From IMG/VR virus record IMGVR_UViG_3300028914_000001, positions 221,489 through 285,488 of that record: a stretch of 64,000 nucleotides of DNA; one strand, written 5' to 3'. Each line of letters starts with the position of its first letter. Positions within the stretch are counted from its first letter, which is position 1. Source of the stretch: a virus. Taxonomy: Duplodnaviria; Heunggongvirae; Uroviricota; Caudoviricetes. Under the pieces are notes generated by a model. It was not told the origin of the DNA. It ran no database searches and saw only the letters and a list, made by a program, of their open reading frames with translations. Shown in pieces: positions 15,458 to 18,505 of the stretch. A program made the translations under genes and the position numbers.

Positions 15458-15694
15458 ATGATTATCGCTAAATACAAGAGAAACAACATTTCCGAATATC
15501 AGAACATCTTCGAAAAAATCGGAATCTTCATTGCCAACCAGATTCTTCGCCTCATGGCTGACTTCAAGCTATACAGCATCGAGGCGAACACGTTCAATGT
15601 ACGTGTTATCGTATGGGTAATCATCTTCATGGTTCCCATAATGCTGATGCTTGGAATCGCCATGATAGCCTGTCTCAAATTTATCTTTTTCTAA
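15458..15694 (+). CDS. Small membrane protein
   Basis: Long C-terminal hydrophobic segment; GAGG RBS. Confidence 0.65.
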   Translation: MIIAKYKRNNISEYQNIFEKIGIFIANQILRLMADFKLYSIEANTFNVRVIVWVIIFMVPIMLMLGIAMIACLKFIFF

Positions 15695-15724
15695 ATCGAG
15701 TATACCAATTTCAAAGGAGAAAAC

Positions 15725-16033
15725 ATGAACGTCAATCTGAGTAAACGTGAAATCATCGACATGATTAAGTCCGTTCCCGTATCTTATGGAAGATACACGA
15801 AGGAATTGAATGAAGCAGGTGCGTGGGAGTTTAACATGGACGGCCCAACTCATTTCGTCTGGAATGTCACCGTGCTTCTTACAAAGACAGAAGAATACCT
15901 CTACGAGTTCTACCAAAAACTATATCGTGGCGACTACTATTTGCCTGACGAAGAAATAGATTATACTCCGAAACCAGTGGAATTGCCTCTCCTGAGGCGA
16001 ATGTTTCCCGTGCTTAAACCGATATCGGTATAA
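15725..16033 (+). CDS. Hypothetical protein with C-terminal LPLLRRMFPVL motif
   Basis: Strong AAGGAG RBS; 102 aa. Confidence 0.75.
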   Translation: MNVNLSKREIIDMIKSVPVSYGRYTKELNEAGAWEFNMDGPTHFVWNVTVLLTKTEEYLYEFYQKLYRGDYYLPDEEIDYTPKPVELPLLRRMFPVLKPISV

Positions 16034-16050
16034 GCATTGTCGCTTCCAGT

Positions 16051-16449
16051 ATGGAAACTTTGTATAACGCATACGACATGTACACATTGCAGGCCTGGAT
16101 GATGTTTCTTCCAGGACTGCTTTTAATAGTATTCCTGCTAGCGGTGTATATCGCACTGAAATACTATGCCAAGCGCACTACTACGAAAATCGACATTGAC
16201 GAGGCAATAAGCGACCATTGCTTTGTACTCGTCGATTTTAAACACGGGAAGTTTCTCGGTGAATACAATGACGAGCGGTATGGAGATTTTGTCGATGACC
16301 CGAGATACGCCTTCAAGTGGCTGTCCAAGAGGAGTGCAAAGGATGTGTGCGATGAATTGAACAGGAACCGAGGTTGGGAGCTGGAACCAATCACTATTTT
16401 AGAAGCCATGGTTATATGGCGGGACAAGAGACAAAAGGAAGGTACATAA
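16051..16449 (+). CDS. Membrane-anchored hypothetical protein
   Basis: N-terminal TM helix followed by KYYAKR. Confidence 0.7.
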   Translation: METLYNAYDMYTLQAWMMFLPGLLLIVFLLAVYIALKYYAKRTTTKIDIDEAISDHCFVLVDFKHGKFLGEYNDERYGDFVDDPRYAFKWLSKRSAKDVCDELNRNRGWELEPITILEAMVIWRDKRQKEGT

Positions 16450-16739
16450 TGGATAACAAAGACTCTGCACTAAACCTTATTCATGCCCGAATGATGCTTC
16501 AACATATTAACAACAAGCTTGAAGAGTATATCGGAACCCCCATTGGCCAGGATGCGGAGATGGCATCTATCGAACGGTATTTGCAGTCGGTAACAATGTC
16601 TATGGTTCAGAAAATCGACCCGGAGGCCACTACTGATGTGAGGATGCCTCGTATTAGCGAAGGCGGACGAACCATAGACTGCAACATAACTACCAGACAC
16701 CCAGAAAAATTTGGTATAAGTCTTGACATCGCTCGTTAA
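16449..16739 (+). CDS. Hypothetical protein (weak tail-sheath C-terminal-domain-like pattern)
   Basis: TAATG coupling with the upstream gene; begins MDNKDS. Confidence 0.65.
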   Translation: MDNKDSALNLIHARMMLQHINNKLEEYIGTPIGQDAEMASIERYLQSVTMSMVQKIDPEATTDVRMPRISEGGRTIDCNITTRHPEKFGISLDIAR

Positions 16740-16751
16740 ATTTTCTATAAT
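16723..16751 (+). promoter_or_regulatory. Perfect consensus sigma70 promoter
   Basis: TTGACA (16723-16728), 17 bp, TATAAT (16746-16751). Confidence 0.9.
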
Positions 16752-16756
16752 ATGTG

Positions 16757-17015
16757 ATGGAAGGTTTTTCAGGCTGGTACCTGGAAGGCCGCCGAGCAAA
16801 GGAATCTGATGCTTTTCCTTATAACGGTAAGGGATTCTCAGAAAAAAGGCTGAGTTCGGAACAGCTCGTTAAACATTGCCGGACGGGGACCGTGACCCGT
16901 AGCACGGAGGCAAGCCATTTCGCCACAGGACTTGGCCGCCATCCCGTTACCCAACACCATGGGATGTATGGCATGGGGGTTCTCAGAGTCGACGCTGGGG
17001 ACCCCTTTCGTTTTT
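16757..17015 (+). ncRNA. Putative structured non-coding RNA (~260 nt), family unrecognised
   Basis: Has its own promoter, is locally GC-rich, forms back-to-back stems with a possible pseudoknot, and ends in a hairpin plus T-tract. Confidence 0.65.
16976..17015 (+). terminator. Intrinsic terminator
   Basis: GGGGTTCTCAG-AGTCGACG-CTGGGGACCCC followed by TTTCGTTTTT. Confidence 0.8.
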
Positions 17016-17475
17016 AAAGTTTTTTGAAAAGAAGTTTCAGCTGCTCGGTTGAGTGAGGAGACAGGGTGAATCCCTGATGTTCCCAGTAACTACGGGCATC
17101 ATCGTCGAACGCCATCAGGGTTATGTACTGACACTCGTGCTGTCGTGCGTACTTGAATACATAGTCCAACATCGTGTTTGAAAATCCGTTACCTTGTGCA
17201 TCAGTCGCCACTTCGAACTCATAGAGGTGAAGATTTCTGGTTGTCTTTTCTTCGACATCGGCACAGGCAAGTCCGATAATCACATTCATGCTTGTGAATA
17301 CCATCCACTCGCCGTTATACCCCATCGTCTTTGCGTTGTCCATGATTTCTTCAGGGGTCTTGCCTTCGATGTTGCTTTCGTCCTTTTCGTAACAAATCAT
17401 CGGAAATCTCTTGATGGTATCCATGTTGGACAAGAGTTCCTTTACTTCTGCTGGGCTGTATAACTTTACTTCCAT
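17014..17475 (-). CDS. GNAT acetyltransferase
   Basis: 'LHLYEFEV...QGNGFS', 'ARSYWEHQGF'; likely start MEVKLY at 17475. Confidence 0.85.
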   Translation of the reverse strand: MEVKLYSPAEVKELLSNMDTIKRFPMICYEKDESNIEGKTPEEIMDNAKTMGYNGEWMVFTSMNVIIGLACADVEEKTTRNLHLYEFEVATDAQGNGFSNTMLDYVFKYARQHECQYITLMAFDDDARSYWEHQGFTLSPHSTEQLKLLFKKL

Positions 17476-17482
17476 TGTTAAC

Positions 17483-17953
17483 CTAGGTGAACTTGTATTC
17501 CATGACAGTGTAGTGCCCATAGCTTGTCAGGTTTTCGATAAGGAATTCCTTTATCCGTTCGATATCCCTGATGAAGTCACTTGTGTTATAGAATGCAAAT
17601 GCTTCTTTGGTGTTCATCAGTAGTTTATCCTTTACATGGTAGACTAAGTCCGTGAACGGGCGTTCGTGTAGCATGATATCATGGATAAAGGTGTCATGCC
17701 TGTTTTTTGTATTGGCTACGGCATTTATGGTTAGCTTGAAGTAATCGACAAACGGGAAAATCAGTCCTCCCTGACCATCGCATGAGGTTATGGTTCCTGA
17801 CGGTATCTGCTGGATTCCCTTCTGCATCACGTTATACTGATGTTGGCGTTCAAGGATATTGTCAGTTTCACCGAGTATGAAACTCTTCCTGTACAGAGGG
17901 TGTTCGAGCATGTTGTTCGCAGCAAAGTAGATGTATTTAGATACCATAGGCAA
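17483..17953 (-). CDS. T5orf172/GIY-YIG-like protein
   Basis: 'KYIYF...ILGET.NILER...YN' and a late 'KEAF' motif. Confidence 0.5.
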   Translation of the reverse strand: MPMVSKYIYFAANNMLEHPLYRKSFILGETDNILERQHQYNVMQKGIQQIPSGTITSCDGQGGLIFPFVDYFKLTINAVANTKNRHDTFIHDIMLHERPFTDLVYHVKDKLLMNTKEAFAFYNTSDFIRDIERIKEFLIENLTSYGHYTVMEYKFT

Positions 17954-17969
17954 TTCACGTAAGTCTGGC

Positions 17970-17978
17970 TATAAACTA
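17970..17978 (+). promoter_or_regulatory. Late promoter motif TATAAACTA
   Basis: 24 nt upstream of 18002. Confidence 0.8.
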
Positions 17979-18001
17979 TATTTTGAAAATGGAATTCTGA
18001 C

Positions 18002-18505
18002 ATGCTCGACCTAAAATTATCTGTACAGCAGCCGATGGAAAATGTCTATCGAATCTTCGCTTACCCTGCCTATGCAAATGAGGGCGAATCTGGTGTCGCT
18101 CGGGCGATGGTAGTTAAATCTGGCGATGCGAACTTTCTATGCGACTTCGTCGTCAAGGATGAAGAGCGTGGCCATGGTGTCGGGACAATCCTTCTCGACA
18201 TGCTGATGGACCAGTTTGATATCAACTGCCTTACCGTCGAGAAGGGAAACGACATCGCCAAGCACATGTATGAAAAGGTCGGTCTGACCGATGATGAACC
18301 CGTCGATATCACACTGTTCAATAAAAATGGCGGACATGACCAGCATTGCATGTTGATGTCATCGTACAAGTTGAGCGATGATGAAAAGAAGGCGTTGGCA
18401 CGCCTACTGAACGAAGTGACAATGAAATTGTTCAAGAGTGTCTATGTAAATAAATATAACGCATCTGACCTGGATGTCGATGCGTTGTTAGATAGGTTAG
18501 GCTAA
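18002..18505 (+). CDS. GNAT acetyltransferase (late-expressed)
   Basis: 'FVV..EERGHGVGTILL', 'NDIAKHMYEKVG'. Confidence 0.9.
   Translation: MLDLKLSVQQPMENVYRIFAYPAYANEGESGVARAMVVKSGDANFLCDFVVKDEERGHGVGTILLDMLMDQFDINCLTVEKGNDIAKHMYEKVGLTDDEPVDITLFNKNGGHDQHCMLMSSYKLSDDEKKALARLLNEVTMKLFKSVYVNKYNASDLDVDALLDRLG

Follow-up and report, generated by a model that had tools for sequence, protein, structure and literature searches.

A stand-alone structured RNA encoded by a rumen jumbo phage

We describe a phage RNA of about 255 nt that has its own promoter and terminator. Comparison of 19 homologs shows the predicted gene to be non-coding, independently bounded and, judging from its covariation, selected for a compact multi-pseudoknot fold. 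It lies in a stretch of 64,000 nt (hereafter, the window) that is part of a complete 422,150-bp jumbo phage genome with terminal repeats. A stand-alone, structured non-coding RNA of no catalogued class had been proposed here from the letters alone (the original prediction), and this proposal is now backed by a broken reading frame, covariation, blank Rfam searches and the presence of the sequence in rumen RNA libraries. The features of the locus are:

15725..16721, + strand: three ORFs without known function, forming a swappable cassette with the RNA (lineage 1 only)
16723..16751, + strand: sigma70-type promoter (-35 at 16723-28, -10 at 16746-51)
16754..17017, + strand: 87-aa ORF, rejected as a gene (broken in 17 of 19 homologs)
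16756..17015, + strand: gene for a non-coding RNA of about 255 nt, terminal hairpin included (107 invariant positions and 26 compensatory pairs over 19 homologs; RNA contigs)

The phage has a T4 gp17-like terminase, with at most 35% identity to that of any GenBank phage, and 38 tRNA genes; no tmRNA was called in its 422,150 bp. Sequencing runs containing the RNA sequence come from gut and bovine gut samples. Homologs of the MFS, RtcB and nicotinate phosphoribosyltransferase (NAPRT) proteins, together with a Fib_succ_major domain, gave no signal as to the host.

Transcription signals and coding potential

The perfect TTGACA-17-TATAAT promoter of the original prediction is present at 16723-16751, and transcription is predicted to start at 16756-16759. 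It is the sole 12/12 site between 10 and 24 kb of the window and one of two in the 422-kb genome, the other heading the tRNA cluster. Calling it the strongest promoter goes further than this match allows, given that about 70 other promoters of the same phage, as well as some homologs of the RNA, use TATATT as their -10. A promoter is found at the equivalent position in all homologs examined, with either TATAAT or TATATT. The roughly 70 TTGACA-17-TATATT promoters crowd around the genome ends, and this -10 consensus may be useful toward naming the host. As anticipated, the RNA stretch is GC-enriched (54% vs about 44% in the flanks) and ends in a terminator hairpin (16975-17006) followed by a U-tract.

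The 87-aa ORF begins at or before the predicted transcription start, which leaves no room for a ribosome site. Its frame is intact in only 2 of 19 homologs; the other 17 have stops in it or indels of 1-2 nt. Both observations rule out a protein-coding reading: homologs do not conserve this frame, which had already been judged non-protein-like.

Presence in RNA libraries

The RNA sequence is present in rumen RNA libraries. Part of the stretch was found in 17 runs recorded as RNA, from 9 studies, four of them with a small share and one being probably DNA; the runs were preselected for containing the RNA, and their contigs carry no strand, ends or level and may include DNA. Aligned to 12.5 kb around the locus, contigs from each of two studies run from 16782 to 16965/6, carry three substitutions and reach hardly any other phage sequence. 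Another RNA contig, the third, spans 16736-17014, and a fourth covers much of the 12.5-kb region. The ends shared by the first two (16782 and 16965/6) are only a weak hint. Sparse contig cover on the flanking genes is no evidence of their silence. Early and abundant expression, as originally proposed, is what the promoter by itself would predict.

A covarying fold with several pseudoknots

Folded alone, the sequence exceeds chance by a modest margin (z = -1.94; 8 of 200 shuffles as good), so the case for structure rests on the homologs. Our model, of which an 8-sequence version preceded the 19-homolog one, comprises 13 helices and is 97.5% paired over the 19 homologs, against 33-47% in slid controls, with 89 cells showing two-sided change. 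The comparison of homologs that had been proposed as a check gave 26 compensatory (two-sided) pairs, compared to 13 ± 2.4 in shuffles (0/500 reach 26), in a test that is inflated by the relatedness of the homologs. Many swaps trace to the split between two lineages; P4, the 3-bp stem, P7, P8 and P9 vary inside lineage 1 too, and many changes keep pairing through G-U. The elements are:

16763..16790, + strand: P1 hairpin; paired at 88%, with 2 compensatory pairs and a register that differs from one lineage to the other
16793-97/16864-68 (span 16793..16868), + strand: P2; identical and paired in 19/19, encloses P3
16806-08/16839-41, + strand: P3a; 2/3 pairs compensatory
16815-21/16828-34, + strand: P3b; 6/7 pairs compensatory
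16822-27 with 16944-49, + strand: pseudoknot 3, between the P3b loop (5' side) and a strand about 120 nt apart
16854-59/16879-84, + strand: P4, pseudoknot 1, crossing P2 (RNAalifold); 3/6 pairs compensatory, 98% paired
16885..16907, + strand: H-type pseudoknot 2, made of a 3-bp stem (16885-87/16896-98) and an invariant stem (16890-94/16903-07)
16914-17/16933-36, + strand: P6 hairpin with a variable loop; 17/19 paired as aligned, no covariation
16938-42/16968-72, + strand: P7; one position with three pair types
16950-53/16960-63, + strand: P8; 3/4 pairs compensatory, loop ACCA
16975..17015, + strand: P9 terminator hairpin and U-tract; 6/12 pairs compensatory, upper stem invariant

Four crossings are predicted, three of them backed by covariation. 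P2 is identical in all 19 homologs and therefore offers no room for covariation; P4, which crosses it, was absent from the original fold. In pseudoknot 3, A-U is exchanged for G-C once, and there are two G-U changes. A fourth crossing is tentative: the invariant UGG of the P1 loop (16775-77) may kiss the ACCA loop of P8 through 3 bp, which show no two-sided change and are invariant bar one U-G. A conserved A-rich strand follows P2, and invariant single-stranded bases lie in 16798-16801, 16869-16878 and 16908-16910.

All stems originally listed can be written in the window sequence, yet the homologs favor only some of them. For instance, 16837-41/16850-54 and 16876-80/16909-13 pair fully in just 5 and 4 of the 19 homologs, and 16941-45/16961-65 is better replaced by the covarying P7 and P8. 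The interleaved pairs had been read as either an H-type pseudoknot or a two-state switch. We prefer the pseudoknot, and the switch is not needed. The 5-bp version of its first stem (16883-87/16896-900) is found in 7/19 homologs; only the inner three pairs hold, as P4 takes up the two outer bases. This 3-bp stem is fully paired in 18/19 with two compensatory pairs, and its first pair is purine-purine in one homolog and in the rumen RNA contigs. An alternative helix between 16788-97 and 16902-11 fits all sequences with zero two-sided change and two mismatches, and is possibly a minor state. Pairing of the P9 loop with 16877-82 was discarded, as it fails in the window-type sequence.

P2/P4 and the adjacent H-type element would stack as a double pseudoknot in which invariant purines are left unpaired. 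This architecture is commonly seen in HDV-like, glmS and twister ribozymes and in riboswitch aptamers. The RNA could hence be a new ribozyme, or a free aptamer sponging a small ligand, for example a nucleotide signal used in immunity, a role in keeping with two adjoining pseudoknots, with invariant single-stranded bases, and with NAD-salvage genes in the genome, a known counter-defence theme. We consider this unlikely: no homolog contains a known ribozyme, intron or RNase P consensus, Rfam gives no match, a self-cleaver would have no evident substrate in a stand-alone unit, and there is no downstream gene for a riboswitch aptamer to control.

Homologs and a mobile transcription unit

The 19 distinct homologs (56-99% identical) were collected through pattern scans, related phage records and neighboring-protein look-ups. 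They represent two phage lineages, with 55% identity between the terminases, and the known range is narrow: one group of uncultured rumen jumbo phages. Further pattern-scan candidates were chance matches inside genes, and L003 was dismissed as a chance match in a giant-virus-like contig. Blastn against GenBank phages and plasmids gave zero matches to the RNA, and the rest of its own genome holds no match of 14 nt or more. Between near relatives the RNA is 96% identical vs 81% for its flanks, a sign of strong purifying selection.

In lineage 1 the RNA closes the three-ORF cassette, ahead of a convergent GNAT gene, and 15 of 15 intact-cassette loci beyond the first set carry it. Close relatives without the RNA, including a complete 419-kb genome, have unrelated genes in place of the whole cassette. 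The RNA is missing anywhere in that 419-kb genome, whose terminase is 90% identical, and in a 348-kb relative. The swap zone (15458-17014, compared with L005, L009, L010 and L011) lies between a 78-aa ORF and the GNAT gene, and the alternative allele holds 6-8 unrelated ORFs, one of them encoding a 319-aa protein. Immediately past the RNA, at 17014-18505, a 156-aa ORF lies between two GNAT acetyltransferase genes.

The genes around the RNA in lineage 2 are unrelated to these, and the one upstream is divergent. The cassette ORFs are not beside it there, it is missing from lineage-2 relatives that share the adjacent gene, and no protein neighbor is common to both lineages. In the promoter region of one lineage-2 locus (L068, about 1770-1825) we noticed repeated palindromic boxes and a non-canonical -35, common with the divergent gene. 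Homologs of the ORF just upstream of the RNA in the window (16449-16721) also occur without it, and the neighboring ORFs have no Pfam or PHROG match, one of them lacking an Atlas match as well. As judged from these neighborhoods, the RNA is accessory and mobile between them. Cassette swaps, the differing lineage-2 neighbors and upstream-ORF homologs without the RNA indicate that the mobile unit is promoter-RNA-terminator, with no obligate protein.

The absence of a shared protein neighbor and the divergent upstream gene in lineage 2 also argue against a cis leader. No consistent same-strand gene lies downstream: a convergent GNAT gene follows in lineage 1 and varied genes follow past the terminator in lineage 2, which led us to reject a riboswitch.

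Four homologs (L082, L133, L135 and L153) are mosaic, with lineage-1 ends and a lineage-2-like middle segment. They imply that recombination inside the RNA is probably frequent and preserves whole helices. From the patchy presence and this frequent recombination, one can suspect a structured element that is selfish or vestigial, or else a feature that works as DNA, with no benefit for the phage. We find this highly improbable. Strong purifying selection speaks against it, no nuclease, RT or transposase accompanies the RNA in the gene neighborhoods of either lineage, and the G-U-preserving changes together with the dedicated promoter and terminator point to RNA rather than DNA.

Another explanation is that the RNA was captured from a host and acts as a decoy of a host defence RNA (a ToxI, CptI or AbiF antitoxin, or a DRT or retron RNA), in the manner of the phage TE pseudo-ToxI; expression of antitoxin mimics is known from phages (PMC5086642). 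Its 23-nt H-type pseudoknot and its accessory, mobile nature would suit such a decoy. What it has in common with pseudo-ToxI and type III antitoxins is a small H-type pseudoknot and, as an RNA expressed by a phage, a possible counter-defence role. Type III antitoxins, however, have repeats and a toxin gene, and the phage RNA has neither: we found no tandem repeats (about 35 nt) nor a following toxin gene, and no RT gene adjoins it. It is also far more complex than a ToxI repeat. No bacterial copy turned up by the core pattern in GTDB genomes or by covariance model in 66 bacterial genomes, among which the true host is probably not sampled. Taken together, we regard a captured decoy as quite unlikely.

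Comparison with known RNA families

Rfam 15 covariance models, applied to the window and two divergent homologs, gave only chance-level partial matches (at gathering thresholds, or at E<=10 at the locus), so the check first proposed is blank for three divergent members. The original prediction saw no tRNA, tmRNA, RNase P, SRP, hammerhead or group I core, and our motif searches agree. RNase P (CR-I, CR-V/P4) and SRP (helix-8) motifs occur in 0/19 homologs; tRNA, tmRNA and Y RNA features (acceptor stem, T-loop, CCA end, tag frame, Ro-binding site) are absent; and no homolog has a hammerhead, twister, pistol, glmS or group I/II consensus by pattern search. The family is apparently undescribed, though a 10,000-candidate viral RNA survey (PMC10690425) may already list it.

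With a multi-junction, multi-pseudoknot fold backed by covariation, the RNA resembles the ornate RNAs in kind. Few bacterial and phage RNAs of its size combine several pseudoknots with many invariant unpaired bases, and those that do often prove to be catalysts, ligand binders or RNA-only assemblies (PMC5737381). One near counterpart is ARRPOF (RF02933), with which it shares a length of about 255 nt, four pseudoknots and carriage by mobile elements, and which forms homodimers through kissing loops (PMC12990946). ARRPOF comes from Fusobacterium plasmids, whereas our RNA belongs to rumen jumbo phages. By its published description, ARRPOF has a P9 running from the 5' end to L6 and a 12-bp intermolecular P10; no 12-bp self-complementary segment was seen in the phage RNA. 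Even with the cutoff relaxed to E<=10 per genome, the ARRPOF model does not match the locus.

The manA (RF01745) and raiA (RF03072) models also gave no match there. The manA RNA is phage-borne, pseudoknotted and about 200 nt long, and forms RNA-only oligomers and cages in vitro (10.64898/2026.07.01.735769), but differs in habitat and gene context. The raiA motif is likewise stand-alone, multi-stem and pseudoknotted (200-260 nt), although it is chromosomal in two phyla and monomeric (10.1101/2024.12.08.627333). ROOL and GOLLD occur in phages, and ROOL came from rumen data (PMC5737381). ROOL, GOLLD and OLE measure 580-830 nt, the first two often lying in tRNA arrays, in contrast to the 255 nt of the phage RNA and its location 128 kb away from the tRNA cluster.

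This distance bears on a further possibility, that of a translation helper binding tRNA 3' ends, in which the P1 loop would resemble a T-box bulge (UGGN) and the P8 ACCA would be an internal mimic of a tRNA end. In its favor, UGG and ACC are invariant in 19/19 homologs, the genome's one other perfect promoter drives more than 35 clustered tRNAs, and RtcB and a TROVE/Ro60 protein are among the products that the phage encodes. Yet a full T-box motif is found in only 5/19, with one mismatch, there is no T-loop or CCA end, and the RNA, far from the tRNA cluster, is missing in a complete relative. We deem such a helper very unlikely.

A palindromic terminal loop and a proposed mode of action

P9 is more conserved than termination requires, in its invariant upper stem and its palindromic loop (16988-93), which reads GUCGAC in 16 homologs and GUAUAC in three of one sub-lineage. 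This swap of one palindrome for another weakly suggests a homodimer formed through the P9 loop, it being a single event of a kind in which about one third of double changes stay self-complementary by chance; a tight intramolecular tetraloop also fits. Palindromic kissing loops are known in OLE and GOLLD, where palindrome-preserving changes support symmetric intermolecular contacts (10.1101/2024.12.08.627333). A two-piece tmRNA, with P9 resembling the tmRNA 5' end, was rejected: the covariation of P9 is with its own 3' arm, and an acceptor partner is lacking.

Our best reading, which we hold to be about evenly balanced between right and wrong, is an ornate RNA that founds a new family, works in trans, is probably dimeric and acts by shape in host takeover. 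The host sigma70 polymerase would make it early and at a high level. It would then fold into a rigid, nuclease-resistant particle, and two such particles would pair by their self-complementary terminal loops, as OLE, GOLLD and ARRPOF do. Acting by shape rather than by antisense pairing or coding, the RNA would most likely bind and titrate a host protein or complex, either a defence effector or an RNA-binding or translation factor. A target carried by some host strains only would account for the patchy distribution of the RNA. We consider a bolder version rather doubtful, in which the stacked double-pseudoknot core is catalytic or binds an immune effector or signal, making this a protein-free, dimeric counter-defence RNA of unseen fold.

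Structure, oligomeric state and activity are directly testable, because the RNA is short enough to synthesize, compensatory variants and an exchange of the predicted dimer loop are available from nature, and the cassette is present or absent among close phages. This last property offers a handle on the role of an ornate RNA, a question that is open for ROOL, GOLLD and manA.

Other features of the genome

Two ORF-free gaps, at G000:C1 328963-329242 and 217440-219218 (one with 54% GC), could house more non-coding RNAs. A TROVE/Ro60 gene lies within the tRNA cluster (G000:C1 101958-103301, minus strand; L066), and directly before it, at about 103340-103780, are tRNA-like elements with abnormal anticodon arms that are probably YrlA-type Y RNAs. 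An RtcB RNA ligase gene is found at G000:C1 62982-64175 (minus strand; L099); RtcB, Ro60 and the 38 tRNAs suggest a tRNA-repair kit. A nicotinate phosphoribosyltransferase gene (G000:C1 323523-325861; L101) stands beside an ORF that looks nucleotidyltransferase-like by eye, a possible NAD-salvage counter-defence pair. Related terminase genes (L047, L048, L056-L061) look interrupted, as they either span more or match only in part; introns or inteins are a possible cause.
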